Shown here one piece after another: positions 10,247 to 59,920 of a stretch of 64,000 nt of DNA. Under the pieces are notes generated by a model, which was not told the origin of the DNA, did no database searches, and saw nothing but the letters and a program-made list of their open reading frames with translations. Position 1 is the first letter of the stretch. Each line of letters begins with the position of its first letter. This DNA comes from Psammoneis japonica (taxonomy: Eukaryota). The stretch spans positions 377,719 through 441,718 of the forward strand of contig QPGO01000040.1 in NCBI GenBank assembly GCA_008632985.1, given 5' to 3'. A program made the translations under genes and the position numbers.

Positions 10247-10700
10247 GTGGAAGCATGGCTCAAATCGAGACATTGCTTGAACAACAGGTTGGCATCTGTG
10301 AGCAATGAGGCGCTCGGCCTGCTGCCAGCATTGGAGAACAATTGGGGCAAGTGGACGTGCACGCACGGCAGAACAAAGGAGGAGTTGGAGGTGCAAAAGA
10401 AGGCAGGCCGCATTCCAGAGGTGAAGTGCAGTGAAGGCAGCAAGAAGCAGGGCGATCAAATGAATCAAGTGCAAAAGGGTCAACAGGGTTTGAACAAGAA
10501 GGGACAGGAGAGATGCAAAAAATTGGGAAGTGCGATTGACCAAAAGAGTTGGGCAAAGACGCAGATGAGTGGGATGAGGTTTGGTTGAAACAGCTCTGGG
10601 AATGCATGGATGGGATGGAAGACAGCTGAGAGAACACAAGAGAGCAGTTGGAAGCAGCAGATGAAGAAGAGGAGAACATTGAGCACATGGATTTGTGGGC
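10247..10700 (+). mobile_element. Relic of a transposon-associated accessory ORF
   Basis: SVSNEALGLLPALENNWGKW resembles an SDEAF.LL..EN...W pattern I associate with diatom TE-linked ORFs; heavily mutated. Confidence 0.3.
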
Positions 10701-10949
10701 AGCAGACCCACCACAACAGGCAGCAGTTTGAACATTTGGCATCGAGTGGCAAATTGAAAACAAGTTGAATCAAGGAAATGGGTGCACCAACAATGAAGAG
10801 CAGGGAACACTGATGCATTGGTGCAGGGTGATCCAAAAATGAGGCTGCAGAGCAGAATTGTCCATGATGGGCACACATTGTTGATGAAGTCAACAAATTA
10901 AAAATTGGGCACGTGGGTGTCGCTTCGCTCGTTGCAATTTGGCAGAGAC

Positions 10950-11880
10950 CCAAATCAAACAAAATCAAAGGCAGCCCAAATTGTTTGATTGCCCCCCGGG
11001 CAAATTGTTCCCCACTCTGATGTGCAGTCGGTGCTGTCATGTGCTGCGCCACTGACATCATGGTGCTGTGACTGGCAGCAACATCATGACACAGCTTGAA
11101 TGGCGCGAACTTCAAAAGCCACAGCTGCAAGTTGTTGTGGCACTGAAAACTGCTGTGCACAGCTTGAGTGCTGACACAAAGCTCAACAGAAGCTGCTGTT
11201 CACGACATTGAAGAAAAATGCTGCACAAATGACCAGGCTAAAAGGGGCAAAGCATTGTCATCACTCTTTTGTGTCTGCAGCTCTGGGTGCACAAATCAAG
11301 CATTTTGTGATGAGCGCAATCTAGCAACTCAGCACAATGAATGCCCTGCCCACCATCAAACACATTGGCAGTTGTTTTGCTGGCATCTGGCTTGCTCCTT
11401 TCTTGGTGCTTTGTTGTTGGTGTGCCGCGAGGCAGAGAGCTTCTCTTGGAAGTGAAAAATGCCTCAAGCTTTGAGCAGTTGCTGTCCAATTTGCTTGTGC
11501 CCTCAGCTCCCACACCAAAACTTGACAATTGCCACATTCCATTGGGTGACACTGCTGGGGTTTTTTGTTGTGTTCACATGAGAAGCGAGAGGACCAATGC
11601 TGGATGTCGCTGCCAGCCAGGTGCATCTTGCCAGCGGCTCTGGAGCATGCAAAAAATCTGCAAGGTTTCTTTGTGCCAGAGGCTTGGCAATCTTGGCAAG
11701 TCCAAAAGACTTGGCAGCTGTTTTTGATTTCTTCTTTGCAGGCTGCGTCGTGCACCGCCAGCTCTTGAAGATCTTGTTCTCGGCTGTGAAATCCTCAGTT
11801 GGATGTGCGAGTTTGCTGCAAGAGAAACCATTGTCTCTTTTTTCGCATCCTTGCCTTGGCCACGTGCTGCACTTCCCCGA
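10950..11880 (-). mobile_element. Possible hAT-like transposase relic (BED-type zinc finger)
   Basis: FWTCQDC...KMHL spacing fits a BED finger; downstream HQSGEQFARGAIKQFGL resembles the hAT H(T/S)GENxA motif; no TIRs found. Confidence 0.3.
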
Positions 11881-12241
11881 TTGGGGCAAATGGCGTGTCA
11901 TTGAAATAAATTGTTCAAGCGGATAGAGATCGTTGGTGTGATGGTTGCGACACCCACCCCTGCACTCGGCGTAGAAATGCGCTCAAGAGAGAATTTGGGG
12001 GACGTGTACCCGCCGCGCCAGCTGCGCTGTTGCGGCTGAAAAAACGCACTGATTGACAGACTCTCTCAGCACCGGTACAAATTCTACACGATGAGATACG
12101 TCCCCGCCCGCCCAAAGAAATCCTTTTTTGGCTTCGGTCTCCGGTAAATAACGCGATCACTTATCACACTGCACACTGCATTCTACTCGGAATCTTTTTG
12201 ACACTCGACACCAACCTTCGACGCGATTCATCGTTGCTTCA

Positions 12242-29162: not shown

Positions 29163-31021
29163 TCATCCTTGCAGAGAGTGACTTGTTTCATTAGCGCCTT
29201 GGGCTGTCACGTGTGCTGGGGGCTGCAACGGATCTTCTCCCTTGCATCGTTCAGTCATGTTGACATCTTGCATCAGCAACGCTTTCCCAAAGACTCGTTT
29301 CCAACTGGGCAACGTCTTGGAAGTATTTCCTCGAAAGACAACAGCTTCTCCATCAAATCCATCATGTTTTAAATCCGCGAAGAAGGCCACGGTGTGATTG
29401 GATTGTGGACGATAATGTCCACTACATGAATTCAGTCCCTGGAGTGTTCCGTTATTGCAGACAGTCATCTCACCAGCAAAAAGTACGGGCTGTCCAGTAA
29501 AAAACGAATCGTGATTAAACCTGTGTCGGACATCTTCTGAAACATACAGTCTCTTGTCTCGACCTCGGACAAAAATATATTTTCCGGTTTCCAATGTCTT
29601 GCCGCTTTCCGCAAAACTAACTTTGACAGTCTTCCCACCGTCTGATAAAGCATAATCGATCCGTGCCTGTGATCGCTGTGCATCAGTGAGGTATTGCATT
29701 GCTCCATCGTTGAGATGTCGGCGAGGACACTTAGGATGCTCATAATGCCGCCCAGATCCATAGTCAAGCCACTGGTAGAATGGTTCTTGAGAAAATGGAT
29801 TGCCTGTGGACCACGAGATAAAGTATCGCCGAAGGCAATCCCTATTTCGTCCTCCACCTGGATCCTCCAGCTTTAACACTGCTTCTATTCCCAATCCTTT
29901 ACCTACTGAAAGAGAATCTGATGGCTCCTGCGAATATTTTTCCATCCATTCCTGCACACGTTCTGCAAAGACTTCTGCCGGCTGTTTTCTTACCCACCAT
30001 CGTTCACCTTTTTCAACATCAACCATTTCTGCTACTGTGTCACTCCAATCGACTCGGTCTTGCAGCATCAAACTGATTGTGTGTTGGAATGAATTTCCAG
30101 CCGTTTCCTTCTGAATGATGTTAACTGGGACAATCATTGAACTCTCCGCTCCTCTTGGATGATTAAAGATTGCCAATACGGGTCGGTGTGTAGTGCTATC
30201 ACACGTGATGTGAAACGTGAAATTATCTTGATGAGTTGTAAACTCAAAGTCACTGTGACCTTGAGAAGTAGTTCCCATCTCTTCGCGTTGTTGACTCGCA
30301 CCCAAAAACATGCGGAGCCGTGGCCACCCACTGTTTTCATGGTACTCTGGCCCGGCGTTTCGGTCAAACTTTGGTAGCACCAACTTTAAAAGGAGCAGGC
30401 CATCAGCATGGCCCAAGGAGATTGGACTTTGGATTCTAGATGCGATTTCTCTTGTTCCGTAACCAGTGACATTTACAGAAGATATGCCGTTCGAGCATGC
30501 CTGCGTGGTAAGAATGATGTCATCCCGGACCAAAAACCCTCTACATTGATTCGTTTCGTTCGTGTTTCTTGGTGAAAGCGATCCCTGAAGAGAAAGCACC
30601 AGATCCATTACGTATTGTTCCAAGGGCTTCTTATCTACTTGTTTCTGCAACGACGACTTAGGTCTTGTAGTTCCGATCAGTTTTTCTGATGCAGCTGTAT
30701 CGTTTACATTAGCTTTGGCAAGGATCATATTTGCCACATCTTTAGAAAATTTCTAAAACTCGAGTGAACCTTATTTTGTGATGAATCGATGGAAATTGGC
30801 GATAGTTTACCTCTTAGCGCTGAAGGAACCGTGTCGTGAAGTATTTCGCCTCGCCCATCATCTTCTTGCGCTTCGCTTGTCAATAACGATACAGATAAAA
30901 GCTGGCAAAAACACAACACAAAGAGTAGCTTGAGGCCCACCAACGAGTTCCGAACAGTTGTCGTGGGCGGGACGGGAGTCGTCATGGAACGGTTCAAATT
31001 TTGTCTTTGATCATCGCCCAT
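29163..31021 (-). CDS. Membrane-anchored protein with IQM-like C-terminal domain (frameshift near 30740)
   Basis: FYQWLDYGSG, CPRRHL..QYL, FNHDSFFTG..AG, SGHYRP match the plant IQM family C-terminus; hydrophobic N-terminal segment in ORF 30725-31021. Confidence 0.65.
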
Positions 31022-31244
31022 TGTTGCATTCCTTGAACCGTCTACTCTAGAGAGTACAGTACCAGAGAGACTCTGTTGGTTTGCCAGAAGTAAGAAGATT
31101 AGCTTGGATCAGCAAAGTGCGGGAGAGTGGATATTTTTTAGATGGGTCAACATAGGTACAACCGGTATACCGTACAGCCGAATGAAAGGTCATTTTCGTA
31201 CAGTCATTGTCCAAAAGGTCATGATGATTTTTTGACCTCGCACA

Positions 31245-31312
31245 CTCTCTTCCGCACCACTTACAGACCTCCCAGTTTGCTCTCTTCCGCACCACTTACA
31301 GACCTCCCAGTT
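31245..31312. repeat. 33-bp direct repeat, period 35
   Basis: ctctcttccgcaccacttacagacctcccagtt at 31245 and 31280. Confidence 0.95.
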
Positions 31313-31314
31313 GG

Positions 31315-34300
31315 GAGTGGACCTCGCAGTCTCGTTTTTGCATGAGAGTCCTCAATGTGGTGGATGCAAAGTGGTGTGGTGCAAGGGGATGAAACTGTGG
31401 AAGATTGTGGCAACAGTTTGGACCATCAACTCGAATTTCAAAAAAGCAACACAGTTCTTTCTTGTGAGCAACAAATCTGCTTTTCAGGTGATGAGAGCGC
31501 AGACACATCGCACAAGCAGCGGACCCTGTCAATCTTGCTCAGCACCATCAACTCTGCTTGGGTGTTGTCATTGCATTTGTCACAATTGTCAACAACAAAC
31601 ACAGACTCTTTGAAGATTGACTCTTCACTCATGGATTGTGAGAGCACAGCGGTGCTGTGGAAGTTCCATGAAAGCCGCTTCCACAAAACCCGCATTTGGT
31701 GTGGCTGAGATTCATTTCAAGGGACTCAAGCTGAAGTGCAACAATTGCCAAAGCACATGGCACCACAATGACATTAAATGCAAGGAGACATGATGCAGCA
31801 AAAGTGTGCAAGTGAGAAAAGCATTGCAGCGACAAGTGCGCAGATCTGTGTCTCCATGGAGCGAGGGAGGCCTGTCGCAATTTCTTGTCAAAAGAGCCCA
31901 GGTGTTTTGTTGTGATGTTCTTGTTCTTCTGCAGCATTGACTCACCTTGCCAAGGACCCAACACAGATTTCAAAATGTCAATCACTGCATGCCAAAGAAG
32001 ATGAGTGCATCTCAGCTGCACCTGCAGAGCGACACCAACCGATTCTTGCTTTTTCCATGCCGGACTTCACCACAGCAAAATGCCAAAAGAATTGTTGCTG
32101 CAGCTGCATGAAGAGGGGACAAAAATGCCCCACAGGCCAAATGGTGGCAGCAAGACATGTGTCGCACTTCCTGTGCCTTGTCGCCAATGTCGCTTCTCCC
32201 AGTGTCACAACCACATTCCAAGTCAACAGCGATCTGCCACTTTTTTAGAGATGTGTCACACCCAGTCTGCCAGCCTCTCAAGAACACAATGGACTTTCTG
32301 CATGTCAAGTGCAACAGCTTTGGTTTGGCAATCTTTGCAGTGCACACCAACATTCCACCAAGCAACGCTGTCATGGCACAACCCTTTCTTCATGAAGTCC
32401 TCCCTCACGGCCAGTCTTCTCTGCCGCATCCAAAGTTGACTTGTTTCTTTCAGGAGAGTGAAGCCATGGCATTGGCAAAGCCATTTGTCCCATGATCCTC
32501 ACAGTTTGGGCAGTCTCAGCAACCAGCAAAAGATGCAAGTGTGCCTCTTTCCACATGCATTTTTCATGCAGTGCTTTTTGTTCTGGACCCTGGAAGGAAA
32601 ACTTGAAAAACACTGACAGCTCCCTTTGCACCCCCTGAAACCATGAATGCTCACCCCTGTCAGCACCATGTCTGAGATCTTCACACAGGAAAAATTTCTT
32701 CATGACCCTGGAGATGCACAGATCAAAGTCCAAGCTGGTTTGCAGGGGTGCTTTTTTCCAAACAGATGACCTCTCATTGGCCAACTGCAACATGGCAGGG
32801 TGGTCCATTTGCCACGCAAGCACCATCTTCTTGGTCAAAGATGCTGACAACAATGGGGGTCTCCTGGCATCCCATTCCAAGACATTCATGCCACAAAACA
32901 TGCAAGCCTTGTCATTGTCGCCCAACGTGCTTTCCATGTCACTTGATGCAACATCAACTTTTTGCAGGCACTTGGCACCTGCTGTTGGACTGGGAGTGGG
33001 AGATGGCACAGGAGAGTCTTTCTTTTCTTCTGGCTGCATGCCATGCAGTGCATTTTCTGATTTTTTTTATTTGCTTTGCACTGGGGCAACAAAAGGAACA
33101 TCAGGTTCAGGAACTCCATCCATTGCAGTGCATTTGCTGCTGTCCTGGTCATTCAACCAACAGATTCACCACTGTTGTAACATGTCAGGATGCCAAGAGG
33201 AGTGTTCACTCTGCAAACACCTTGCAAGTGCAGCAATTGGTCACAAACCTTTGCAAGTGTGTTGGGATGCTCCACTGCATCCTTTCCAGGTTGTTTGCCT
33301 TTGATCATTCCAGTTGGACAATGACTCACAAGAATCAACATGAAGTCTGGATGGTTTCTTGTTGCCTTCACTTCTTCACATGAATTGTCACCTCCTTTCA
33401 AATGCCCAGAGATTCCAAGATGTCAATGACAGCTTCTTTTCACATGACTGTTGACATCATCTGCTTCACTTGAATGTCCCCAAAGAGTGCCAGTCTTGCT
33501 GACAACCTGGTTTCATGCATTGGTTTTGGGGTGGGACAGCTCTCCCAAATCAGATGGGACAACAAAGCTGGAAACCTGGAGATGGGCGACTGCATGCTGC
33601 TCCTCCTTTGGTGCCAATGTGTTAGATGTGAACTTTGCAGTCTCTGAGAGCGGCCCCAGTTCCAGCAATCCATGTGAGAAAATGCAATCCAGCTGCTTCT
33701 GATCCAACAGCTCAGGCTGGTCTTTCAACCCACATTGAACAACCCACAAAGCAAGTTCACCCCAGATGGTGCGCTTGCCCAAACTGCAAGCATCAAAGAA
33801 TTCTTCTCTTTTCAAAACTTTCACTCTCCCCAAGCGATGCTTCCACAATCCATCTGGAAGTCAAAAGGGCTTTCACAAGTTGCAACTGTGCTCCCATCTG
33901 GGCCAGTCAGTGTGCTCAGCTCTGATTCATTGTCTGCCATTGTTGTTGTTGCAATGGGTTGTGGTGATGAAGAACTTGCCAAGTGGCTTGGGCGCACAGC
34001 CCATTTGGGGAACGGTTCTGCCACATGACCATGCATGGTTTGAGCCCAGTCAAGCACAGGCTTGGGAAAGTCCAAATGGTTGGGTTCCTTGGCACACACA
34101 CACAGGGCACCATGTCGCATCTTGGACTGGCATCAGCAGACACATTTGGTGCAGCAATCCAGCAGGTGGCCTTTGCAGGGTGCTGTGCAGAAGCTGGAGA
34201 GAGATGTGATGGCTGCAGCAAAATGTTGATGCAGCTGAGTGATGCAGCCCATTGCATGCTCACTGGACACTCTGTTGCAGGCATCATCCATTTCCTCAAC

Positions 34301-36990
34301 AAGTCTCCGGCCAATTGTTTCTCCAAGAAACAAGCCACAGTCAAGACTGCAATGCATGGATCTGAGTTTGTTGCACAGCTGCTTCCACATCATTGCTGCA
34401 TGTTCTGAGTTGCAGTTTCACAGATGACAGATGGGCTGATTGGGTGGGGCCGGTGGGTGCACGGGTTGGTTCTCAGCCCTTTCATCTGCCTGCAGAACTT
34501 GCGTGGCCTTGTGGTGCAACCCAAATCTCTGTAAATTCAGCACATTTTGCCCTGCAGAACAATTTGGGGGAGTGTTTTGGCTTGTGGCTCTCTCAAAATG
34601 ACACGCATGATGACACAGACAACAGCATTTCACCAATTTCAAAAACATGGTCATCTCTGAGGCACTTTGTTGTGCACTCTCAATGGAATGTCACATGTCA
34701 CAGCATGGGATGACAGGTTCATGTGGGCAGCTGATGTGGTGAAAAATCTTGTTGAAGATCTGTGCTGACAATGTCACCACCACTGTCTGTTGATGAGCCT
34801 TGCGTGCCACCACCATTCATGCTGTGTGATTCATTGTGGCTTGTCATGGCTGCTTTGATCCCACTTGCATGTTGTCTTTCTGTTTTGCTCTTTTGTTCTG
34901 CACAAGAGTCTCCATTTTGTTGTGGGGTGTCCCTGAGATGGACTCAATGGGCAAGAGTGTTGCCTCTGCATTGCAATGGCTGTGGCAATCCAACAAAAAG
35001 GCTGAGCCACAGACACAGCATCAGGAAGAGTCAACAACAAATGTGCTGACTTGGAGCTGTGGCATCTGAAGCTGAACAAGCTCTCTCAAGAGCTCCAGTC
35101 AGTCACCACACATTTTTGGCTGGAGCTTGCCCTGCCTCCACAATGCTCTGATGCTGAGTTTCATTTGGCAGACAAATGCATCATGGTGGTTCTGAAGTTG
35201 TGGATTGTCTTTTTTGGCTGCAAGGCAATTTACAACCCAGCAGAAATCTGTGAATTGTTTTGCATCATTTGTTGGCCACTGCTGCAATGTCAGGAATTGT
35301 GGAGTGCTTGATTGACAATCCACTGCACTCCCAGCTTTTGGACTGCAAAAAAGCAACCACACTGACCTTGTTCTGCCATGAAGGAAACTGATGAGTTGTT
35401 CTTGGCTCACCTGTGTTCAAGAACCCAACTGAACGACCTGTTGGACAGCCACACCTGAGTGCAAGCTGCATTTCTTGATTTTCAGTGGATCTTGCATTTT
35501 GCATGCCTTCTGTCATTCAATGCCAGCTGGATTGTCATGCTTTCTGCTTTCCATGGTGTGTGGCAGAAATGCACATGGGAGGCTCTGGATGGTTTCTGCC
35601 CAAAAAGTGCACAGCATCATGTGATCACCAAACCACCAGCAAATTTGAGACCCTGCTGTGATCACTTGATCAATCTTGATCTCCTGCTCCACCACTTCCA
35701 CTCCTGTGGGAGGTGCCTGCTGAGTTTGATGGAGGCAGTGGAAAGATCACATTTGAACAACTGTGGGGCCAATGAATTTCTCTTTGTCTTGGTTGACAAA
35801 CTCAGCTGCCCATTTGGCTTGTGATGCCATCCTCTTTTGGTTTTTGAGTTGGTCAAAGAAAGAAAAATGATGAATCATGTTCTCTCTCACCCAGTGCTGG
35901 CACTCTGCAGATTTTTCTTTTTTGGTGCGCAAATCTGGGAAAGCCAGCATTGCCAAAGAACAAAGTCTGGGTGTGTGACCGGTGCTCCACCTGCTGCCCC
36001 TTGGAGCCAACTTGTGACTTAAAAAACCCGGGTGTGGCTGGTGCAGAGCAGGAGAAAAGGCACACTCAAGCCAGCAGTCTGCAGCCTCTTCGTTTTAACC
36101 CTGTGCAGGCCCCCACAGCTTTGACTGTGATTTTGCTGGAAGAAGCAAGTTCGCAGCACAAACAGCCACAGCTTTGATGACCCCATGATGGCAATCATTG
36201 GCAGAGTTCTTCTCTGGGTGGGGTGTTTTCGTCACAGGCTCAGGGAGTGTCCAATGACAAGCTTTTGTGAGCCTGCATGCCATGGTGGGCAGTGTGCTGG
36301 AAAGACACATGGCAGCAGCTGCGGCCATGTCACAGCAAAAACTGACTGCAGCAACGGCAAGGCACGCTGCTGGCCAGCGCTGGTGGCTTCTATTTTCTCA
36401 AATGCCCCCAGGAAAAAAGAGGCAAACATCTGCTCATGCTGGGCCAGGTGCATCATGCAAAACAAATTTTGGCTGGCTGCGCCAGCAGCCCATTTTCCAA
36501 ATGGTTGTTTTGCCTGCATTGTCTGCACAGCATGGCCAAGAAGACACTGCCCACTTGCAGCAAGTCACCAGCAAGCCTCAATTGCCAGCATTGCTTGTGA
36601 AAAATCTGCACCTGGCAAGTTCTGCAGCTTGGACTTAACCTGGTGCAGCTGTCTTGGAAATGCACCATTGCCCTTTGTTGGCTGGCAGCACACCGGGCTC
36701 CCTCGCATGCGGCAAAGTGTGCGCACCAACTGGTGGTGCAGTGTTGGTGTTGTCATTGCACCATTGGCCAAGATGTGTTCATTGGACTTGCTCAAATGAA
36801 AAAAGAAAATGAGTTGCTCCCTTTTGTCCATTGGCTTTGTGATTGACCGGGCGACCTTTGACCCCATCAAGTCTGCTGGCTTGTTGTGACACACGTTGAG
36901 AGGGCAGGTGATGCTGGCACTGGTGGAGCATGGCCATTGGGGCCAGCTCCTCAAGGATCTTGTGCTGGATCCTCTCCGGGGGCTCCTGTT
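31315..36990. other. TpA- and CpG-depleted hypermutated island 2 (nested TE relics)
   Basis: TA nearly absent, CG scarce, TG/CA dominant; dense spurious Cys/His/Gln-rich ORFs in all frames. Confidence 0.92.
34025..34380 (+). mobile_element. Ty1/copia (CoDi-like) LTR retrotransposon RT-end/RNase H fragment
   Basis: DAAHCMLTGHSVAGIIHFLNKSPANCFSKKQATVKTAMHGSEFVA matches copia RNase H D.AH...TGRSVTG....N.TPI.W.SKKQ.TVETATYGSEFVA. Confidence 0.85.
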
Positions 36991-37340
36991 GTACACTGCT
37001 TTGCAGGAGTCGTCGCAACGTCTGTTGTCACAGATCGGGGCGGGCAGCGGGCAATGGGAAGCGAGGAACTTGGTGCAGTAGTCGCAAAAACGGCAGTTTG
37101 TCTGAAGACCCACTGAACACAGTTGTACATAAGCCTTAGAAATTAACGGGAATGAATTGAAAATGTCACAGATCCAAATTGTTCTTATTGATTGATAGTA
37201 ATGGGCCGTTGGGTCCTGTGCAATTCGCCACCAGAATTTTTTCTCTGCAGGGGTGAACTCACACAATCAGGCAAGTGCCGGTTCAACGGTTGGGCAACGA
37301 CCGAGTGTGAACTGTGATAAGTCACCACCTTCGCCGGCTG

Positions 37341-45980: not shown

Positions 45981-47491
45981 AAATTCATTCTCAAGAAACT
46001 CCGCTTGCCATGGTCTTAATATTCGTCTAGTGGGTACTGCTGATCGCTTGGTCCTATTGCGATATTCTCATCGTCTTCCTCTTGTTGTCGACCACAGGTA
46101 CATACGACATATCGAGGTAAAAAGAGATTCACATCCTGTGGTTTGAGTGCACGGAGTGACTTTTGACAAAAGCATGTTGTCTCCTGCTGTTGCTCCTGTT
46201 CGTGGTTTGCTCTCTCACGACCTGCTTGTCGAGATTTAGACTTGTGCTTTCGTTGTTTCTCTCGTCTTGCTCTGTCATCGTCTTTATGATGCTCCCTATC
46301 GTCTTTCGATGTTCAGTTTTGTGTTTTCGTTCCTTGTCACGTTTTGGTTTTGATGCCGCTGCTTTGTCCTTTGAATCACGTTTGTTGTTTTTGTCCTTTC
46401 TCTGCTCTCCTTTTTTGTTTTTGAACCCTCATGATGCGACGGCTTTTTTCGCCTCTCTTTCTCAGCTATTGGCTTGTCGCTTTCTCGTTCGCCTCCCATT
46501 CGTTCTGGATTGTCATTCATTAGCGCATACATGGTTGCATTGCATACAAAGGATCATGCAGTGCTCCTGCCTCCTGCTGTCAGTCGTTTGTTAGCAACGA
46601 ACTTTTTTTCTGGCACAACGGAAGTCTGGCACACAAAATGTCTCGTGGAAGTAACCAGGGCACTTATGATGGGCAGTAGTCATTTTCATCTTACTGAAAA
46701 AATTAGGCTTTTTTGGACATTCGGAAAAACTATGGGCAATGTTATATGACCTCTTGTAAGATCATTGGTTATTGCCGGGCATAATGTCATTGACAACCAG
46801 CGTAGCGGTACTGTCGACGGTACTGCGTGCAACGTACAGTTGGTAGTGACATCTTTTTCTTGTGGTAATGACTGCGTTGAGTCATTGGTCATCGAGCTCT
46901 TGAAGCATGAAATTAGAGATAGAATGGTGATTGAAAAAGGCCTTCTTGATGAGATAGTAGCGGCATTTCCAATGCGATGCCCGTGTTAAACAAAAGGTGT
47001 GAGCAATGCCGGGATATTCGAATGAAGTCCATCTTTGTCTATTCTAAAGAATTTCTTGCGGACTTGCCAAGTATCTTCGTCGCATTAGTTTCTGTGATGC
47101 TCTGTTGGGAAGAGATCGCCAGCTCAGTACCGCGTCTCTACTAGAGAGAGCTACTAGTAGAGAGGGGCGGGCAAGACGTGACATTGGATGCTGGATGCAT
47201 GGTGCAGACGGGCTGGTTTTCGAAACCAAATATCTCAATCAATCAATCAACACAACGATTACTAGTTAGTGCTAGTGCACCTTAAAGGTTGCAGATTCAA
47301 ATCTAGTTCCATAGCCGTCAACACACATTATCAGAATCTAGCTCCAGGACACAGCTACTAGCTATAGTGAATACAAGCAAAAAGGAATTGGGGACTGCAG
47401 CAATGGGTTATCCATCCTGTCCTCTCTCCTCTAATGGTGTGTAAGTGCATTATACAAGGTTGGATCTTTCGTCGATGGAGGGCAACGCGAT

Positions 47492-48001
47492 CTATACCAG
47501 GCCGATTCCTTTTACCTCTTGCTCCGCCTCAGTTTTGCTCTCTGTCTCGTCATGAGGTAAGTTTCTCAAATAGCTAATGATAGTAAGAAACAACCAAAGA
47601 GTGCTTGCGCCTAAAGCAAACCCCGTCAATAACCCAAAGTATACGAACTCTGGGCTGCCCGAATGGCCGTTGTACCAGCAGTTTCCGTCAAGTGGGTAAA
47701 AGTGCCACGTGTATCTTCCACTGGGTGAATTTTGAACAGACCTGGAGCACAGCGTGGCCAATAGGAGGTACATGCCAAAGAAGCTCACGGCAAATAAACA
47801 CACCACGACTTGATAGAGTGGACGACCCCAGAGCGTCCGTCGGTAGTATGGCTCCTGGCTGTCTTGTGAAGGGACAAACGAATCTGCGTTAGTTGCCGAA
47901 ACGCATCCCGCGCAGCAGCCCATCGGGCAAGATATGCAAGTACAACAACACAATCCCATGGTTCGTTTGAGTGGCTGCGGTTGTTGTTCTCGTTTTGACA
48001 A
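47492..48001 (-). CDS. Small two-TM membrane protein with Cys-rich N-terminus, tandem copy A
   Basis: Paralog of 48400-48963; two hydrophobic segments; C-terminus GIGLV. Confidence 0.65.
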   Translation of the reverse strand: MSKREQQPQPLKRTMGLCCCTCISCPMGCCAGCVSATNADSFVPSQDSQEPYYRRTLWGRPLYQVVVCLFAVSFFGMYLLLATLCSRSVQNSPSGRYTWHFYPLDGNCWYNGHSGSPEFVYFGLLTGFALGASTLWLFLTIISYLRNLPHDETESKTEAEQEVKGIGLV

Positions 48002-48399
48002 CTCTTGTGTATCTTGACACCCGCTTGAGTCGTGAATTGCGCACTATCCTGTTTTGCTTCGCGCACTCTCGACTCCTCTCGAGAAATGCAAGAGTCCAAC
48101 CTTGAAGCACAATGACATTAACAAGGAACGATTTCTTCATAGTAACAGCAGCATCATGTCCCATGCGTGTCGTGTGATTCCGAAATCTCAAATCAAGACT
48201 ACGGATTCAACCTCGAAAAATAGCTGTATACATATTATTAGAATCTAGCCCCAGGACGCAGCTCCTAGCTATAGCGAATACGAGCAAAAAGGGATCTGGG
48301 ATGGACAACCTCCTGCCCTCTAAAGTATCTCTTAATTGATGTGTAAATAATAATGCATTATACAAGGTTGGATCTGTCGTCACTAGAAGGTAACGCGAT

Positions 48400-48963
48400 C
48401 TATACCAGGCCGATTCCTTCTTCCTCTTGGCCCACCTCAGCTTTGCTCTCTGTCTCATCATGAGGTAAGTTTCTCAAATAGCTAACGATGACAAGAAACA
48501 ACCAAAGAGTGCTTGCGCTTAAAGCAGCCACCGTCAATGACCCAAACTCTTCGTGGGAGTTGCCGTCGAGTGGGTAAAAGAACCACGTGTATTTTCCACT
48601 GGGTGAATTTTGAACAGACCTGGAGCACAGCGCGGCCAATGGGAGGTACATACCAAAGAAGCTCACGGCAAATAAGCACAACACGACTTGATAAAGTGGA
48701 CGACCCCACAGCGTCCGTCGTCGGTAGCATGGCTCCTGGAAGTCTTGTGAAGTGACAATTGCATCTGCGTTAGCTGCAAAAGCGCATGCCATGCAGCAGC
48801 CGCAAGATATGCAAGTACAATCATAACAACACAATAGCAATGCCAGCATGGTTCGTTTGTGTGCCTGCGGTTGTTGTTCTCGTTTTGACAACTTCACCTT
48901 ATCTTTGATCTTGACACCCGCTTGAGTCGTGAATTGGGCGCTATCCTGTTTGGCTTCGCGCAC
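48400..48963 (-). CDS. Small two-TM membrane protein with Cys-rich N-terminus, tandem copy B
   Basis: Shares RRTLWGRPLYQVV, LCSRSVQNSPSG, SYLRNLPHDETESK with copy A; flanks also duplicated; true start uncertain. Confidence 0.65.
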   Translation of the reverse strand: MREAKQDSAQFTTQAGVKIKDKVKLSKREQQPQAHKRTMLALLLCCYDCTCISCGCCMACAFAANADAIVTSQDFQEPCYRRRTLWGRPLYQVVLCLFAVSFFGMYLPLAALCSRSVQNSPSGKYTWFFYPLDGNSHEEFGSLTVAALSASTLWLFLVIVSYLRNLPHDETESKAEVGQEEEGIGLV

Positions 48964-49365
48964 TCTCGACTCCCTCTCGACAGGTAGTCGAGGTCATCAT
49001 CCATCAGGTCCATCAGCCGCCCTCAACGTCGATTAAAACCAACCTTCAACGGTCGAGAGTCTAACCTCGAAGCACAGTGGTATTCACAGGAACGATATCC
49101 TCATAGCAACAGCATCATCATGTCCCATGCGTGTTGGGTGTTGGGTGTTGGGCGCGATGATTCGATTCCTTCAGCTGTGTGCGGATTTGAAAGACAGTTT
49201 CATAGTTTTCGCGCTTTATTTTCTGGCGCGCGATGACGTACGTGATGAGTAGTCTAATTGACCAAAATAAAAGATCTGGATGACATGAACTGGAACGCTT
49301 CCTCATCATCTTGCCGGTAAATCACCCCATCGCTCCCGACCGGAGTCTAAGCATAGGCACTGACC

Positions 49366-51275: not shown

Positions 51276-51461
51276 CTATCCGTCTGTCTGTCTACATACG
51301 AACTCAAGAACCGAACATTCTTCAATGTCCTGTTAAGTGTCTCAATGACTTATCGCTCCTATGAGAACGTTCTGGTTTCTAAGAAGAATTCTTGTTGTGT
51401 GTCTTAATAGAGTGTTCTTACCGACCCGTACGGGACCCTTTTTTCCGGGTCTCTTTTTGTA

Positions 51462-51501
51462 TGACGTCATCGTGCGAATATAATAGCGCCACCTGACGTC
51501 A
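51462..51501. promoter_or_regulatory. Two TGACGTCA (CRE-like bZIP) palindromes in the transposon left end
   Basis: tgacgtca at 51462-51469 and 51494-51501; the same 8-mer lies upstream of genes at 2478-2485 and 4265-4272. Confidence 0.4.
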
Positions 51502-51785
51502 CCGCACCTGTAAGTCGCCATGAGAACCCGTAGAAAACGCCATGTCTTACAGCTACAGGGGGGAAACATAACCTGCTGTATCTGTAAGCGGAATGATTTC
51601 CGCTCGTACAAATTCTACGTGATTTCCCCGTGCACCGTCGCTTGCGGGTCGAATCAGAACTCCGAAGAAATGATGTGTGAGAAGCAAATCCCGTGACACC
51701 TCTCTCGCGACAAAAAACACACATCAACGCATTCTCACGATGCTCTAGTCATAACAAGTCATAGCATCCATGCAACACATCTGTC

Positions 51786-52844
51786 ATGCCTGGTGGACAG
51801 CCACAGAGTCACAAGTTGTCATGGGCATTGAAAGAGTTGAAAAAGAAGGAGAGATCTGGCGGCTCCGGTGGCGCTGACGGGGAAAAAAATGCGAGCGGTG
51901 CTGGTGGCATTTCTGCGCTCGATGTTGACAGGCCAGCCCCGCATTTGACCATGGATGGAAAAGAATCAACTCTTGTGGAAATGACAAATCTCCCAATCGA
52001 TCTTACGGAGGATGAAAAAGTTGACATCATCAACAAGGAGAAGGGAGTCACGAAAAAGCCGAAGCTTCCAAACTTGCTGGCTCCTGAGAACGAGGCCTTG
52101 TTGCGTGATCTGCTGCAAATCACACAAGCAGCAAAGGCAAATCAGCATGTCAAGCACACATCCAAAAATGCAACCACATCTTCAATCTGGCAGCCAATCA
52201 TGGACGAGTTCTGTGACCCACCTGACGGCCCTGCACGTGGCTGCGCCAAGCCAGATGGTGAGCATGCGGCGCGCACCTTCAAAGAAAAGTGCTGGAGTGT
52301 CATGAAATCATTGGCGAATTTTGCCAAACAGAAGAAGGAAGAGGATTGCTCCCCGTGTGAGGTGTCTGCATTGTTCATGTGGAACGAGCAGCAGGAACCA
52401 GTCAACAAAGACAAAGAGACCAAGTCGGAAGCAATGGCCTTGCAGAAGGAGAGGGCAGCTGCAAATGCTTCATGTGAAGCAAAGCCAAAGCTTGAGCCCC
52501 CACCTCCATTCACAAAGAAGCGCCCAGTCCCAAGTGCAGCTGTCAATCCATCTGAGAGGCCTGATGGAAAAGTGCCGGGGGAGCCGAGGTCAAAGGACCG
52601 TGTGCTGGATTTGGAAAAAACTCAAGACAAGGCAGACGAAGTCTTGAGCGGCATCAAAGCTTTTTTGCCATCCAAGGAAGAGATTGGAGAACTCAACAAG
52701 CGCAAGAAGAGGAAGCTTCAGCTTGATGCAATGGCGTCTGTGGCAACAATGATCACGCAGGGCAGGGATGCGGGTCTCGACGTTTCAAGGTTTGAAAAGC
52801 ATTTCAAGCACCTGCAAGACGAGTTCTTCGAAGACCAAGCTTGA
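51786..52844 (+). CDS. Transposon accessory ORF (putative Myb/SANT-like DNA-binding partner), hypermutated
   Basis: 352-aa open frame inside the TIRs, convergent with the transposase; W-containing helical region and coiled coil; contains no Tyr. Confidence 0.65.
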   Translation: MPGGQPQSHKLSWALKELKKKERSGGSGGADGEKNASGAGGISALDVDRPAPHLTMDGKESTLVEMTNLPIDLTEDEKVDIINKEKGVTKKPKLPNLLAPENEALLRDLLQITQAAKANQHVKHTSKNATTSSIWQPIMDEFCDPPDGPARGCAKPDGEHAARTFKEKCWSVMKSLANFAKQKKEEDCSPCEVSALFMWNEQQEPVNKDKETKSEAMALQKERAAANASCEAKPKLEPPPPFTKKRPVPSAAVNPSERPDGKVPGEPRSKDRVLDLEKTQDKADEVLSGIKAFLPSKEEIGELNKRKKRKLQLDAMASVATMITQGRDAGLDVSRFEKHFKHLQDEFFEDQA

Positions 52845-52954
52845 AAGAGATGAGGCTTTGCTTGGCACAAATTAGGACACATGTTGCATGTCGCCACAAC
52901 AACTTCAGAGCCATTTAGAAAAAAATCTGTGGCCTCTCACAGTGCATGCTAAGC

Positions 52955-54048
52955 ATGACGACCCCGCAAAGTTGCGCGCCAAATTCCCAGTGCGTTAAAA
53001 TGAGCCAGGCGTTGCTCCAGAAGCAATGGGAATTTTGCAACAACAAACAGTGTTAACGTCATCTAAAGAACGAGAGCTTTCTAAATGGTGTCTTTTTCAT
53101 TTCCATGCCCCCATCAGATCCGAATCGGCGTCGAGACATCCAGACGACCCCGCAGTTGCACGCCAAAATCCTGGTGCGTTTTGCTCAAACAGGCGTGGCT
53201 TTAAAAGCACTTGGAATTGTGGGACAATCAATGGCAGCAACATTGTCTACAGAACAAGAGCTTTCTAATGGTGTCTTTTTTATTTCTGTGCCCCTGTCAG
53301 ATCCGAATCAGCGTTGAGATGTCCAGACGACCCCGCAGTTGCGCGCCAAAATCCTGGTGCGTTTTGCTTAAATGGGCGTGGCTTTAGAAGTGCTTAGAAT
53401 TGTGGGACAATCAACGGCAGTAACATTATTTACAGAACGAGAGCTTTCTAATGGTGTCTTTTTTATTTCTATGCCCCCATCAGATCCGAATCGGCATTGA
53501 GATATCCAGACGACCCCGCAGTTGCGCGCCAAAATCCTGGTGCGTTTTGCTGAAATAGGCGTGGCTTTAAAAGTACTTAGAATTATGGGACAATCAATGG
53601 CAGCAACATTATCTACAGAACAAGAGCTTTCTAATGGTGTCTTTTTTATTTCCACACCCCTGTCAGATCCGAATCAGCGTTGAGATGTCCAGACGACCCC
53701 GCAGTTGCGCGCCAAAATCCTGGCACGTTTTGCTTAAATGGGCGTGGCTTTAAAAGCACTTAGAATTGTGGGACAATCAATGGCAGTAACATTATCTACA
53801 GAACGAGAGCTTTCTAATGGTGTCTTTTTTATTTCCACACCCCTGTCAGATCCGAATCAGCGTTGAGATGTCCAGACGACCCCGCAGTTGCTCGCCAAAA
53901 TCCTGGTGCGTTTTGCTGAAATAGGCGTGGCTTTAGAAGTACTTAGAATTATGGGACAATCAATGTCAGCAACATTTTCTACAGAACAAGAGCTTTCTAA
54001 TGGTGTCTTTTTTATTTCCACACCCCAATCAGATCCGAATCGGCGTCG
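52955..54048. repeat. 183-bp tandem array, ~6 units, inside the transposon
   Basis: cagacgaccccgcagttgc at 53141, 53324, 53507, 53690, 53873 (exact 183-bp period) plus a degenerate unit at ~52957. Confidence 0.97.
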
Positions 54049-54141
54049 TTCAGGAAATAGAAGCGCTAAGAGTTTCGCAACAATGCATGACATAAAGATA
54101 AAAGAAGCTACATTCTATGCTGAGTTTGTAATAACACAGAT

Positions 54142-55775
54142 CTAATGTAAATTTAAGTAGTTTTGAATTGATGGTGGATCGACACCAAATGTGCCGATCG
54201 CACCAATCTGGTTGTGGTTGAAGCACGTGTAACAATTTGTGAGCAAGAAAGACACGCGAAGCTGCTCACAAGCATGCGGTGTTTCACAGCACAGCTTGAA
54301 AGGACAAAACGTCCTACAAATTCGAAAGACATTGGATGCAATGCCACAGCTCCACTCTACCGTGATGCGCACTGCCTTGAGCCGATAATTTTCGAGCACC
54401 TGAATGGGCGTGAGTGGAGCTAGCCCGTTGTGGCCGGGGTGATGCGCGTGAATGACGCATTGTTGTTGAGCAAATCCCCGGTCCGTGTGCACAGCATGCA
54501 CCATGCCATTTGGAAAGTAGCCTTGCTGAACATCCAGCAAGTGTTGGTTCACGGCTGACAAGTGCTGCAAATCGGTGTCAGCTCTGGCAAACTCGAATGA
54601 CACAAAGAGCAATGAGAGTGTGATGAGCAGCCACGTTTTACAGGAAATGCAAAGCACATCGGCAGTGCACAACTGTGTGCTTGCCTGCGAGCTGAAGTGG
54701 GACCCCACATGATGCTCAAGCCGTTTGGAAAAGTTGTTGCAAGCATCTTTGTGCCGTGAATGTGCTTGCACCCCGTGTGCACCGATCGCTGAATGTTGTC
54801 TGCGTCAGGGCGACGCGGTGCATCTGCCCAGTCCTCAACTGGCCCTGTCCCTGGAGCATTTGTTTCAAATGTTGAACAATCCACAAAGCCAAAAATGTTG
54901 AATTCCCCTGGTGGACAAACAAGACCGGGGACGTTGCACACTTGAGCAGCATCCGGGTCAGTCCAAGCAGCCTGTTGCTTCAGTTTTTGCTCCATTGCTC
55001 TTGCAAACAAGGGAAAGTCATCAATCCACCTTTCAAGACCTTGTTGCCCAAGCACAGGAGCATGTCTGTCATCAAGATACATCAAAAACCACCGGCATCC
55101 ATACGACCACCGAGTCAAATCCCTGCCTCCAAAGCACTTGTCCACCAACACGGTGTTGTCGAGTCCAAGTGCCACCTCAGTCAAGGAAAACAAAAACAAT
55201 TCCTCACCAGTGAATTGGCAATGATGCCCATGAGCACATGGCACAAGAACCAAATCGGGCAGGTCAAACAAAACATGCAATTGTCGCAACTGATCCACAT
55301 TAAATCGTGTCGTCCGCTCGGCGCAGTTGTCAGAGCATTCATCAATTCGTCGGTTGTGAGGCAAGACAAAATCAGCAGCACGATGCTCTTCCTCGCATGT
55401 CATGTCACCAATTGCTGCATTGCAATCTGCCCAAATGTGAGCCACATGATGACATGCAAAAATGCCACCCAATGTGTGCGCAAGAGCAACGCCAAACGGA
55501 TCGCCCGCATTGCCAACTTGTTCTGGATCCAACAAATGACCATTGTCCTGGTTGAAAACATCAATTCTGGACACAATTGAAAGCAGAGTGAGAATTGCAG
55601 ACCATTGAATGAGTGATTGAACAGAACGCGTCCAGAACACCTCTGTTCTCCTCAGCACTGACACTCCTCGAGCGTTGAGAGACCCATCCCTCATGTTTCT
55701 GTTGGTGAGCCGCCGTGGCAATTTGCGGCGGTGTCCATGGTGAAATGGACGTGGTTGTCTTGGCATGATGTACAT
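54142..55775 (-). pseudogene. Harbinger-type DDE transposase (DDE_Tnp_4-like), hypermutated, frameshifted near 54680
   Basis: IFGFVDCS (D), QRSVHTGCKHIHG..FPNG..WGPTSARR, HTDRGF (D), VRITVEW (E), LLTNCYTCFN. Confidence 0.88.
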
Positions 55776-57949
55776 CAAGAGTGCAACAATGACACGACTG
55801 CAAAAGTGTTTCTTTACCTTGGTGGACGAGAACCCGCAACCCCATCGTCAAAGCATCAAAGCCGCACCCGCACAGGTTGAGCTGATCGGCTGCAGCACCG
55901 GGCAGGCGAATCGTGATTGAGTCGAGTGGTGAAACACGAACGGATCAGAACCCGAGACCCATGACCCGCACGGGTCGGCAAGAACACTCCAATTGCAAGA
56001 CTTCCAGTGCATGCCACACGTGTGTCCTACGAGGACCCTTGATGAGAGCCTTGAGAAGTGGTTCTAAAGCTCTCCTCCAATCTGGCTCATGATTCGTCTG
56101 TGAACCCAATTTGCTGCGAGCACATCTCGTCTGTCAAACTGTCAACTGCTGTGTCAACTGTCACTTGGCGCCACATTGGGCAAAGTGAGCTCGTCGTGAT
56201 CTCCTTTGTTGATCATGGCCAAGGATCCCTCTCGAAGGCACGAATTGCAGTGCCAGTCCTCTGGGGATCGCGGACAAGCCCAATGCTTGCACCGTGCACC
56301 GGCTGATGTTTTCTGAGCAATGAGTTGGAGGCACGGTTGGAAGGTCTGTGCAGGAAATCGATGGGTGGCAAAAGCTTGGCACAGAAATCATGTTGCCATC
56401 CTGATTCGCGAATGCCCTGGTGCAAAAATCGTGTGGGATCCACACGATGCACGAATCGAGCTGAGGCATGATGCACGAATCATCGAGCTTTCGTTTGCTG
56501 ACGCATGAACATTGCTGGTGTGCTGGCACATGGCAGGAAGATGCCGTCATGCAAGAAACGCTGATTCGCAAATGACCTCTCAAATGACCTCTCCACTGAC
56601 AACCACATGACCCAAGAGAATGGAAGTCCTCTTGCCTCTTGTTGCACAGCCGAGCCTCAGGGTGTGGCCTCCAACCACCATGGCTGTTTTGGGGGTCAGA
56701 GAGCTGTGCACAGCCCCGGCGTGCAGCGCAGCTGGCACAGCACCGGCTGTTTTCTTTGGCCAGGGGTTGGGGCTGAGATTGCAAAAAGATGAAAACATCT
56801 TCTCCACAAAAAGGGAGTCTCCAGACCTTGGGCAGACTGGGCCTCAAAAGAGTCTTTTGGACAAGTGCAGCCGCTGGTGGGTGGTGCCCAGAAGCAAAAC
56901 CAGGGGTGCTTTGCGGGAAGAGATTGCCCCCCCTCCCCAGCCCCAGGACTTGCCATGTGGCACCCAGCACAAGCACCAGCTCAGATGTGAGAGTGTGGGC
57001 AGTGTGCCAGCAGCAGCCAGGAGGTTGGAGTTTAAAGGAAACAATTGACAGGGCATGTGCAAGACCATCTCAAGAAGCTGGCGCCAGCTTGTCAATGAGA
57101 GGATGTGCTTGGGGGTGACTCAGCCCAAAGGCACAGCAGCTGAAAAGCACAGGTGCTTTTGTGAGCCATGTTTTTCTCCCAGCAGCAATGTTCCTGCACA
57201 AATGGACTGCTTTGACATTTTGCAGCAAAAGGCCCCACCGCCAAGAAAAAAGGAGATTGCGGTCACTGCGCACTCTCTCAAATCTGCCAAGAAAGATCTG
57301 AGGCCATCTGTGGCATGTGGACAAATGAGGCTTTGTCAGAAAAATTTCATGCACCCGCCTGCAGCAATTTTTCTGTGAATTGGCTTGAGACATGCTCTGC
57401 CTGGAAGAGCTGCCATTTCTGCAGTGCACAAATGTGGTGCTCTGCCTCTCCTCATTTGGAAGCCAAAAGCAGGCAAATTGGGGGGGAGTGGGCCTGCCAG
57501 AGACTGCATGGAAAAGACAGTTGCCAAGGCAAATTTGACTGCTGTGTGATCCTGGAGGCAGAGCTTGTCTGCCACATGATTTGCGGCTCTCATGGCAGGC
57601 AGAGGGCTGTGCTGTGGCTGCCATGGGTGGATTGCAGGTTCATCACATGTGGCTTCTGACCTGGCAGCAGTCCAGACCACTGCTCCAAGCATTCCCCAAC
57701 TTTGCCAAAGCATGTCTGTCATTGGGTGGTCACCCACCTTGTGAGTTCTCAGCTGGGCCTTGTGCTCAGCACCTCCTCAAGAACTTTGGGAGCAGGGAGA
57801 GCAAGTCAGCAGCAAGACAAGATTGGCACTCTGGGCTCATTGTGGCTCAACCATCAGCGACCCTCACTGTTCCCACCTTCACTCAACCTTGCAAAGGACA
57901 CAGCCACTTGTCACTGGAAAACCCACTTGTGCAGACCAGATCTTGATGA

Positions 57950-58360
57950 TCATGGTGATTTTGACCCAGAGGATGCACCAGCACTGTCCCACCACTCTGA
58001 CAGCAGGTGTGCTGGGGTGGTGGACCAAGCTCGCAGCTGAGCTCTTTCCGCAAGCAAGTTGTGTGGCTGGAGAAGAGTGCATCATGGAAAAAACAGTTGA
58101 TGCTCATGTTTGCTCCACATGCTGTTCAAAACTGCAACCTCCTTTGCAGAGCCTGCAGAGAGTGCAAGAGGCACCAAGTCACTTGCAGAGAAGCATGTGT
58201 GCCAAGCCAACACAGCGTGATCCTTCTTTTGTGCAGTTGAGGCTCCTCCAGATGAGGCATCTCCAGGACTCCATCCAAGTGTGACCTGGGTTAAAGGCCA
58301 CCAGCCAGGACAGGATGATGCCACACCTTTGGAAGCTCTGCCTCTCAAAGCTGTGGAAAA
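57950..58360 (+). mobile_element. Non-LTR retrotransposon RNase H relic
   Basis: VTWVKGHQ..QDDATPLEALPLKA resembles the WVKGHQD...L...A motif of LINE RNase H; upstream LSHHSDS resembles (Y)xDS. Confidence 0.5.
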
Positions 58361-59920
58361 GCTCTGCCTCTTAAAGCTTGAGAGTTGGCACCAGATCAGA
58401 TCATCTTGTTGCTCCATTTCATGGCCATTGCCTGTGCACCATGGCACTTGTCTTTCTGTTTCCCTGCCACAAAACCACATTTTGTTTTCCAATGGTGCAG
58501 CTGCAGCAGGCTGTGAGAGAGTGTTGCTTGGCATGCTGGAATGATTTTTCTCTGTGTTTGCGTGCTTGGCATTTTCTGGCACTTTCAGCAGCGTGTTGTG
58601 AGCACTGCAACAAAGTTGATCCATGATCTCCCACCAGGCCCAACAAACAAGACAATGAACCAATGCAATCTGGCTTGCCATCTCTCTTGTTCAAGTGTGC
58701 AAGCACCCCTCTGAAAATTGCAGCCACATTCTTGAATGCCTTTCCAGCAATGAACCTTGGCAGCAGAAGTTCGCACTGGAACCCCCCTGGGGTGCTGCAA
58801 TGAGCAGTTGGAGGTGGGGCTTCTGCTTCATGATTTTCCAATCACTCTCAGCTTTGGCTGATGCAACAAGAGCACAGTGCTGTGCCTGGGTTTGGCCATT
58901 GGGCTTTGATGACATCCCACACACAGTGCCCATGTTCTTGATTGGCCCTGCCACTGCCAGCAGCCAGAGAGCCAAAACACCAGAACCCTCACCCTCGCCA
59001 GCACCAATGGGCTCTTGGTCCTCCTTTTTCAAGATGTGCTTGTGTTGCTTCTTGTTGTCATGGTGAGAACAGAAATTGATGCCCTTGGAGAGCAGCGCCA
59101 ATTGAAGGAGATCCATTGTCGCCTTTTTGACTTTTGTCCTTGGGTGCAAGAACAGCAAACATCCCATGACATTTCTCTGGACAGCAAAAGTTTAGTTGGA
59201 ACACATTTCCCTCATCTGAAAAGAGCAAAAGAAGATCACAACGTGAATGGAGTGAGTGAGAGAGAAATGTCATTGCAAAAGATCATGCCACAAGACAGAC
59301 TTGCCAACGGCTCTCTCGACAAAGGCAACAAGCCATGGTTTTCGTCCAACAAAGATTTCGCCATTTGCTTGTGCTGGTTTGTGGGGAGTGCCTTTTCCTG
59401 TCTTTGCCACCTGAGGTAGAATGGACTTGGCACGAGGTGGTGCAGCAGAGTTGGTGCCAGTCGAACGTCAATGAGAGAATGTGTAGAGATAAAGATGCCG
59501 TACTTGCTAATAAGAGTATAATCTGTGTAATTGCTTTTGCTTGCTCGGAGCTTCTTGGGCTTTGCGCCCGGCTTTCGACAAATGTAAATATTCCTCACAG
59601 TGGTTCGCTTTTCTGAAAGACGCTTCGTCCACATTGTTCGAGTCTTGGTGACTGTGTTCTGGACACGACCGATAGATTGGTTAGCATCGGTTGCCTTCGA
59701 CTCAGGCGAAGCTTTTCTGAGCTTCTACTTCAAGCTGAGGCTTGCTGACAGACAGAGCAAGTTTTCGAGTACAACTATGTCCGTTATCTTATGCATCTTT
59801 TTTTACTTTCCCCTATGTATCACCGTAACTGTCATATGCACCATGTAGTTCTTGCCTTTAATTCCGTTCTCTTCAAAGACCAATAGAGTTTGTTTGCTAT
59901 CGATCGTTCGAGAGAGTGAA

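Follow-up and report, generated by a model that had tools for sequence, protein, structure and literature searches.

To date, hypermutation of invading DNA at the dinucleotide TpA alone is described in a single source, a 2026 preprint on a chlorarachniophyte. The accessible text of that preprint (Mettrop et al., bioRxiv 10.64898/2026.01.13.699255) reports that two regions of viral DNA integrated in the Bigelowiella natans genome mutate approximately 1,000-fold faster than the rest of it in mutation-accumulation lines, and that these mutations are almost exclusively TpA to TpG or CpA. It further reports 124 TpA-depleted, CpA+TpG-enriched clusters in the B. natans genome and an enrichment of DDE endonucleases and reverse transcriptases among TpA-depleted coding sequences, and puts forward an ADAT-like adenine deaminase as the enzyme. 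Here, we describe a single copy of what is, by its sequence, a PIF/Harbinger DNA transposon, located within a 64,000 nt stretch of Psammoneis japonica contig QPGO01000040.1 (hereafter the window, to whose positions all coordinates refer). The losses of TA in and around this copy are real, and the data largely support the view that they represent a further case of this very recently described process.

A full-text literature search, which included repeat-induced point mutation (RIP), found no report of TpA hypermutation in diatoms. The word 'diatom' is absent from the accessible text of bioRxiv 10.64898/2026.01.13.699255, and a Phaeodactylum mutation-accumulation paper (PMC6604790) gives CG, CC and TG as mutagenic dinucleotide contexts, its accessible text containing no instance of 'TpA'. 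Fungal RIP resembles the pattern described here in being a regional, dinucleotide-specific transition hypermutation that disables transposons, but RIP creates TpA, by turning the C of CpA into T, whereas here TpA is destroyed and CpA and TpG are created. Decay of methylated CpG likewise leaves an excess of TpG and CpA in transposons, and CpG is nearly gone at 32-36 kb and 56.75-59.25 kb of the window; however, such decay cannot remove TpA, and the CpGs in the terminal inverted repeats (TIRs) of the element are intact while every TA on one side has changed. Adenosine-to-inosine editing of the ADAR/ADAT type shares the T or U before the edited A and the reading of A as G, but these deaminases act on RNA, whereas here genomic DNA is changed, including an intron and a flank that does not look transcribed.

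The element spans 51409-55990 (4,582 bp) and is bounded by TIRs of 26 bp each, with the trinucleotide AAT duplicated just outside both ends. The original prediction had placed the element at 51409..55993; the start stands, whereas the end takes in the right AAT and the element itself stops at 55990. The features of the two ends are as follows.

51406..51408, no strand: left target-site duplication AAT (from the sequence)
51409..51434, plus strand: left TIR, 26 bp (from the sequence and an inverted-repeat search)
55965..55990, minus strand: right TIR, 26 bp (from the sequence and an inverted-repeat search)
55991..55993, no strand: right target-site duplication AAT (from the sequence)

The left TIR reads AGAGTGTTCTTACCGACCCGTACGGG on the plus strand and the right TIR, reverse-complemented, reads GGAGTGTTCTTGCCGACCCGTGCGGG. 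The pair was the top-ranked inverted repeat in a repeat search of the region, and its 25-nt core occurs twice in the window and in none of 100 shuffles. The arms agree at 23 of 26 positions and differ at TIR positions 1, 12 and 22, where in each case the left arm has A, the right arm has G, and a T stands immediately before; the earlier claim of three A/G differences, all at TpA, is thereby borne out. On the plus strand, the right end carries C in place of the expected T at 55969, 55979 and 55990. For position 1, the preceding T is the final base of the AAT duplication, and the change at 55990 pairs with the first A of the right AAT, exactly as had been claimed for the terminal base of the right TIR.

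Counting the junction, the left arm contains exactly three TA (the internal ones at 51419 and 51429), and the junction TA formed by the T of AAT and the first base of the element is kept. The right arm has TG at all three of these sites, in agreement with the prediction that every TA of the left arm was altered on the right, plus one further TG that is common to both arms. The three CpGs of the TIR are identical and intact in both arms, again as predicted, so methyl-CpG deamination does not account for the mismatches. The chance that three random substitutions would all be of the TA to TG/CA type is 0.0002-0.0012, varying with the weighting of transitions, and 0.0035 under the spectrum of a TA-normal paralogue pair in the window (exchanges between TA and CA or TG in 12 of 79 differences). 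The left TIR also contains a perfect 10-bp palindrome, CCCGTACGGG, at 51425-51434; at TIR position 22 the left base completes it and the right base breaks it, which favours TA as the original state at that position. Beyond the TIRs the two element ends show no significant similarity (purine/pyrimidine-coded score 332, against a null mean of 316 and a null maximum of 356), so they offer no further paired sites.

The right TIR lies within one of four zones of the window from which TA has been largely removed.

7919-11907, no strand: TA-depleted zone, 11 TA seen against 155 expected
31297-36992, no strand: TA-depleted zone, 13 TA seen against 221 expected
51763-52872, no strand: TA-depleted zone over open reading frame 1 (ORF1) of the element, 1 TA seen against 43 expected
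54160-59417, no strand: TA-depleted, CA/TG-enriched zone over the right boundary of the element, 19 TA seen against 204 expected

Across the whole window, the observed/expected ratio of TA is 0.45 and those of CA and TG are 1.31 each. Within the depleted zones the TA ratio falls to 0.01-0.09 and CA+TG rises to 1.6-2.0 times expectation (1.5-2.0 for 7919-11907 and 31297-36992), while outside the four zones there is one TA per 25.8 bp. The longest TA-free gaps are 1,259 and 968 bp; with TA at background density, a gap of 1,259 bp would arise with a probability of approximately 6e-22. The loss of TA is regional and not genome-wide. When we applied the criteria of the Bigelowiella preprint, which require Rho(TA) of at most 0.43 and Rho(CA+TG) of at least 1.52 in 1-kb windows and define a cluster as at least three consecutive such windows, 14 of the 64 1-kb windows qualified. 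The qualifying runs were 31001-36001 (six consecutive windows) and 54001-58001 (five consecutive); at approximately 8-12 kb, three of four windows qualified and the fourth fell short at a CA+TG value of 1.49.

The distribution of TA inside the element can be followed along its parts, which comprise two converging genes separated by a tandem array.

51435..51785, plus strand: left subterminal region, upstream of ORF1 (from the sequence)
51786..52844, plus strand: ORF1, 352 aa plus a TGA stop (from the list of open reading frames)
52957..54057, no strand: tandem array of six 183-bp units, between the converging genes (from a repeat search)
54142..54583, minus strand: transposase exon 2, C-terminal half of the DDE_Tnp_4 domain (from Pfam and homologue alignment)
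54584..54684, minus strand: transposase intron, GC-AG, 101 nt (from homologue alignment)
54685..55775, minus strand: transposase exon 1, with its ATG at 55775 or 55766 (from the open reading frame and homologue alignment)
55776..55964, minus strand: right subterminal region, upstream of the transposase gene (from the sequence)

The left end (51409-51764) is TA-normal, with 18 TA and an observed/expected ratio of 0.78, whereas the right end (55773-55990, 218 bp) retains a single TA; set against their CA+TG counts of 45 and 37, the two ends differ significantly (Fisher p=0.0011). Depletion is partial in transposase exon 2 (10 TA, ratio 0.36) and severe in exon 1 (4 TA in 1,088 bp, ratio 0.06), and the intron has one TA. 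The purged state extends past the right TIR over 3.4 kb of the flank, and of the two TIRs the left is therefore in spared and the right in purged DNA. Because the zone that holds the right TIR is without more than 90% of its expected TA and the left end appears to be missing none, an ancestral pair with three TA in each arm would be expected to end as observed. Inside the element, each of the two fully purged stretches starts near a start codon and is approximately 1.1 kb long, fading out downstream across several hundred bases.

CpG behaves differently on the two sides of a sharp step near 56750. The stretch 54640-56750, which straddles the right TIR, is TA-free yet has kept its CpG, whereas from approximately 56750 to 59250 in the right flank CpG is nearly absent too, at 0-3 per 250 bp. 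The minus-strand frames of this latter stretch are long and broken only by single stops. In the zone at 31297-36992, nearly all CpG has also been lost (observed/expected 0.05-0.24).

The tandem array is near-normal, with 43 TA distributed as 4, 4, 10, 9, 8 and 8 per unit. The two units adjoining ORF1 thus have four TA each, against 8-10 in the other four, and carry CA or TG at the homologous sites. The units vary chiefly by exchange of CA, TG, TA and CG at the same sites; as neither majority rule nor parsimony gives these variants a clear polarity at many of the sites, only the per-unit gradient of TA was used. The array also has a two-unit higher-order pattern, with variants common to units 3 and 5 and to units 4 and 6. 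At many sites some units have CA where other units have TG, a difference that takes two changes by way of a TA or CG intermediate, and 24 of the 34 variable columns that contain only transitions lie in pyrimidine-purine steps.

Since both tyrosine codons, TAT and TAC, begin with TA, the loss of TA in a coding sequence can be polarized with protein outgroups. We defined conserved-tyrosine columns as those with Tyr in at least 60% of six transposase homologues, which gave 15 columns. At these, the transposase of the element has Tyr in four, His in six, Cys in three and another residue in two. His or Cys therefore stands at 9/15 conserved columns in the element, compared with 3/86 in the homologues when each is left out in turn (Fisher p=4e-7); in the same leave-one-out comparison the homologues retain Tyr in 8-12 of 13-15 columns. 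Nine of the eleven lost tyrosines became His or Cys, the single-step products of TAY to CAY and TAY to TGY, and none became Phe, which argues for damage rather than adaptive replacement. With 56 homologues, the conserved-tyrosine columns of exon 1 gave the same picture, with His or Cys in 4/5 in the element and in 18/373 column instances in the homologues (p=4e-5).

Among the 68 differences that separate the transposase from its closest relative (62% identity) are four changes of Y to C, two of Y to H and four of I to T, the last being the expected product of ATA to ACA. Tyrosine makes up 1.2% of the element's transposase compared with 3.8-5.6% of its homologues, and ORF1 has none in 352 aa. 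For this copy, the direction of change from TA to CA or TG is well supported. Two homologues from other sources, P0150 and P0178, carry two to three His or Cys residues each at conserved-tyrosine columns, and may be partly purged copies in other organisms.

Our data are consistent with a model, which we hold to be the best explanation and a reasonably probable one, of regional TpA mutation of the Harbinger copy after its insertion, with the right TIR lying within the affected stretch. A regional process would convert TpA to CpA or TpG, equivalent to T to C at TpA on either strand, and would have struck parts of the copy once it was in place. It would have erased nearly all TA in ORF1 and in a stretch that starts in the transposase gene, takes in the right end and continues into the right flank, sparing the left end and largely sparing the tandem array. 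The right TIR, inside the affected stretch, would have lost all three of its TA, including the one at the junction, and the left TIR, outside it, would have kept the ancestral sequence. The process may be directed at silenced or foreign DNA, and the enzyme could be an adenine deaminase preferring a 5' T, with the A read as G. The occurrence of both Tyr to His (six) and Tyr to Cys (three) would fit action on either strand.

Alongside the anatomy of the element, the regional loss of TA with gain of CA and TG, and the direction of change in the transposase, all of which are plain in the data, we infer that the three TIR differences came from the same TpA process and that it acted at the present site after insertion. 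The process may be a host defence like that measured in B. natans. The direction of mutation proposed in the original prediction is backed by the Tyr to His/Cys changes in the transposase, by the regional loss of TA and by the Bigelowiella precedent, and its interpretation as a whole is partly supported. As CpG is lost only in the older-looking islands, the TpA process appears to be much faster than methyl-CpG decay. With the left end spared and the right end purged, the rule of targeting is not simply 'whole element'; purged stretches that start at the 5' ends of genes would fit guidance by transcription units.

The likeness to B. natans, as far as the accessible text of the preprint describes that system, lies in a change from TpA to TpG or CpA and almost nothing else, confined to discrete regions, in clusters of TA-poor, CA+TG-rich 1-kb windows, and in DDE-endonuclease genes among the targets. 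In the window, a change limited to TpA is seen indirectly, in the loss of TA with gain of CA and TG, in the Tyr to His/Cys replacements and in 3/3 TIR mismatches, and the older islands lose CpG as well. As for a foreign target, the Harbinger copy qualifies. The depleted islands outside the element (two, plus the flank) show no Pfam match in 75 of their 77 ORFs of at least 90 aa, and no TIRs or long terminal repeats were found around the other islands. The differences are that B. natans is a chlorarachniophyte whereas the host here is a diatom-like stramenopile; that the rate there was measured in mutation-accumulation lines, whereas here only the end state is seen; and that the targets described there are an integrated giant virus and virophage, whereas here the target is a class II transposon. 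Unlike in B. natans, the present locus also has sharp boundaries inside an element, a TIR pair that serves as an internal control, and older islands without CpG.

Several observations weigh against mutation of this copy in place. The ancestral state of the right TIR is an assumption rather than an observation, and the argument from the TIRs uses only three sites in a pattern picked out after the fact. Pattern scans for the TIRs in metagenome, viral and prokaryote genome contigs gave zero further copies in each, and protein-guided scans of metagenome and viral contigs gave zero loci of transposase relatives; a haplotype with the empty site would join ...GTCTTAATTGCAAG... At both ends the limits of the TA-free zone over ORF1 fall within a few bases of those of the ORF itself, and coding selection or a family-level loss of TA could also give a zone bounded in this way. 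A purely chromatin-wide process acting in situ would not obviously be expected to spare the adjacent 350-bp left end. The right flank, where CpG is gone too, may be an older, independently purged island, so a zone that crosses the element boundary is only suggestive of action after insertion and not proof of it. A fixed target preference that put T beside the termini would make the junction TA not unique to this insertion, and the junction argument requires an A as the ancestral terminal base of each end. The units of the array are not cleanly polarized, and a few singleton TA seem to be derived under majority rule. Lastly, TA to CA/TG changes create no in-frame stop, so the open reading frames say nothing about age.

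The mismatches could be older than the insertion, either because the TIRs are natively imperfect or because the changes had arisen in a source copy, perhaps through the same TpA process, and were brought here by transposition. DNA transposons commonly have imperfect TIRs, a fixed target preference would place T beside both termini at every insertion, and no family consensus turned up in the TIR-pattern and protein-guided contig scans against which the right arm could be compared. However, three native differences of the TA/TG type, all with TA on the TA-normal side, have a probability of approximately 0.0002-0.0035, a copy that had lost 11/15 conserved tyrosines is unlikely to have moved itself, and the palindrome CCCGTACGGG favours an original TA at one of the sites; we regard older mismatches as rather unlikely, although they keep some weight. 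A second possibility is that avoidance of TA is an evolved or long-term trait of the coding regions of this transposon lineage, through selection or mutation plus selection, with the TIR differences unrelated to it. The TA-free zones do match ORF1 and transposase exon 1 closely, neighbouring non-coding parts keep their TA, and both ORFs are open. Open frames would be expected anyway, given that TA loss makes no in-frame stops, and conserved tyrosines went to His or Cys and never to Phe. TA is also scarce in the intron and in the non-coding right end, the zone runs 3.4 kb into the flank, and the other islands have no Pfam match save a leucine-rich repeat in two ORFs at one edge, all of which makes lineage-wide avoidance very unlikely.

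An artefact of assembly would arise if dense modification at TpA in silenced regions led the base-caller to read TA as CA or TG. Some long-read assemblies are known to contain systematic errors of the consensus where motifs are modified, and the pattern here is both motif-specific and regional. This explanation is nonetheless highly improbable, as the partial states and gradients of the array and the CpG loss in the older islands resemble accumulated sequence change, and in Bigelowiella, according to the accessible text of the report, the mutation-accumulation experiment recorded this signature as mutations arising de novo. The direction of change could also be the reverse, with the right TIR original and TA created in the left TIR by a RIP-like change of TpG to TpA (CpA to TpA on the other strand). 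CpA to TpA is the classical signature of RIP, three of the four TG sites of the right arm would have been struck, and many Harbinger termini begin with GG. Yet no region of the window is TA-enriched, the islands being TA-depleted and CA/TG-enriched; the transposase changed from Tyr to His or Cys and not the reverse; and the TA content of the left end is ordinary. A RIP-like conversion of CpA to TpA was accordingly rejected on dinucleotide composition, which is the opposite of that left by RIP (TA 0.01-0.09 in the islands), and we find a reversed direction scarcely credible.

Beyond regional mutation of this copy after insertion, a broader proposal can be framed, which we put forward tentatively and consider doubtful at present: that an active genome defence in this diatom-like lineage edits DNA at TpA on either strand, with A read as G, and that its targets are sharply bounded zones in freshly inserted mobile DNA, each approximately 1.1 kb long, starting at the 5' end of a gene of the element and fading out downstream. 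Such a defence would be an adenine-directed counterpart of AID-type transcription-guided hypermutation. If it exists, the TIR pair would date the process to after insertion, and TpA-directed hypermutation would be common to distant stramenopile-alveolate-rhizarian (SAR) lineages and not peculiar to Bigelowiella. The same signature in a diatom-like stramenopile would mean that the process is old or recurrent among major phytoplankton groups.

As well as extending the range of the signature, this copy adds a test of direction that needs no second copy, namely the change of conserved tyrosines to His or Cys, and an internal control, as the affected zone takes in one TIR and leaves out the other. 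Within a single element, the boundaries of the zones are resolved to a few bases, which limits the possible modes of target choice. Because purged transposons lose tyrosine yet retain long open reading frames, they may be annotated as genes by gene finders and overlooked by homology searches.

The assignment of the element to PIF/Harbinger is based on its transposase and ends. Exon 2 matches DDE_Tnp_4 (PF13359; E=4.5e-7, 30.1 bits, cut-off 24.8), a domain also carried by the homologue P0005. The transposase gene consists of two minus-strand ORFs joined by a 101-nt GC-AG intron (54684-54584), and its spliced product of approximately 507 aa can be aligned over its whole length, from the start codon to the stop, with six distant homologues, and the three catalytic DDE columns are kept. 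An alternative GT-AG intron (54641-54565) was rejected, as it inserts eight residues without a match whereas the GC-AG model aligns without a gap. A word-indexed protein search returned six transposase relatives of at most 38% identity, and a full-library HMMER search returned 577 homologues at E<=0.001, the closest being 62% identical over 176 residues. ORF1 gave no Pfam match, including none to Myb, and no homologue by the word-indexed protein search. Its nearest Atlas clusters are Myb/SANT-like, Myb_DNA-bind_4 and NAM-associated, with scores of 0.84-0.87 that fall under the lead threshold of 0.9, and as a lead only, ORF1 is a candidate for the Myb/SANT-like second Harbinger protein.

With its DDE_Tnp_4 transposase, second ORF, short TIRs and 3-bp target-site duplication, the element resembles PIF/Harbinger transposons. 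It is unlike them in its AAT duplication, in a second ORF without a Pfam match to Myb, in the internal 183-bp tandem array and in its heavy mutation. The usual PIF/Harbinger duplication is TAA or TTA (consensus TWA), from which AAT departs. In the spared left subterminal region upstream of ORF1 there are two copies of a CRE-like palindrome, TGACGTCA, at 51462-51469 and 51494-51501.

The window around the element is gene-dense and diatom-like. Its pyruvate dehydrogenase E1-alpha gene encodes a protein with 75-83% identity to diatom proteins, and all the organisms named among the 120 matches listed are diatoms, most of these matches being without an organism name. Uniform genome-wide depletion of TpA and a dinoflagellate with 5-hydroxymethyluracil were rejected, the depletion being regional and the host genes diatom-like.

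A number of further features were noted in the window. In and beside the first island, the only Pfam matches among the island ORFs are to the leucine-rich repeat (LRR), in two ORFs at its edge (7802-8394); a minus-strand stretch inside it (9150-9884) is Sel1-like by eye; and the stretch 10001-11000 inside it has a strong plus-strand purine skew (GC skew 0.23, AT skew 0.28). A tandem duplication of approximately 770 bp, at 47311-48082 and 48220-48980, is 89% identical over aligned positions and has an ordinary substitution spectrum. A 44-bp repeat is present in three copies at 483-614, and a perfect 35-bp duplication lies at 31245-31312, at the edge of the second island.

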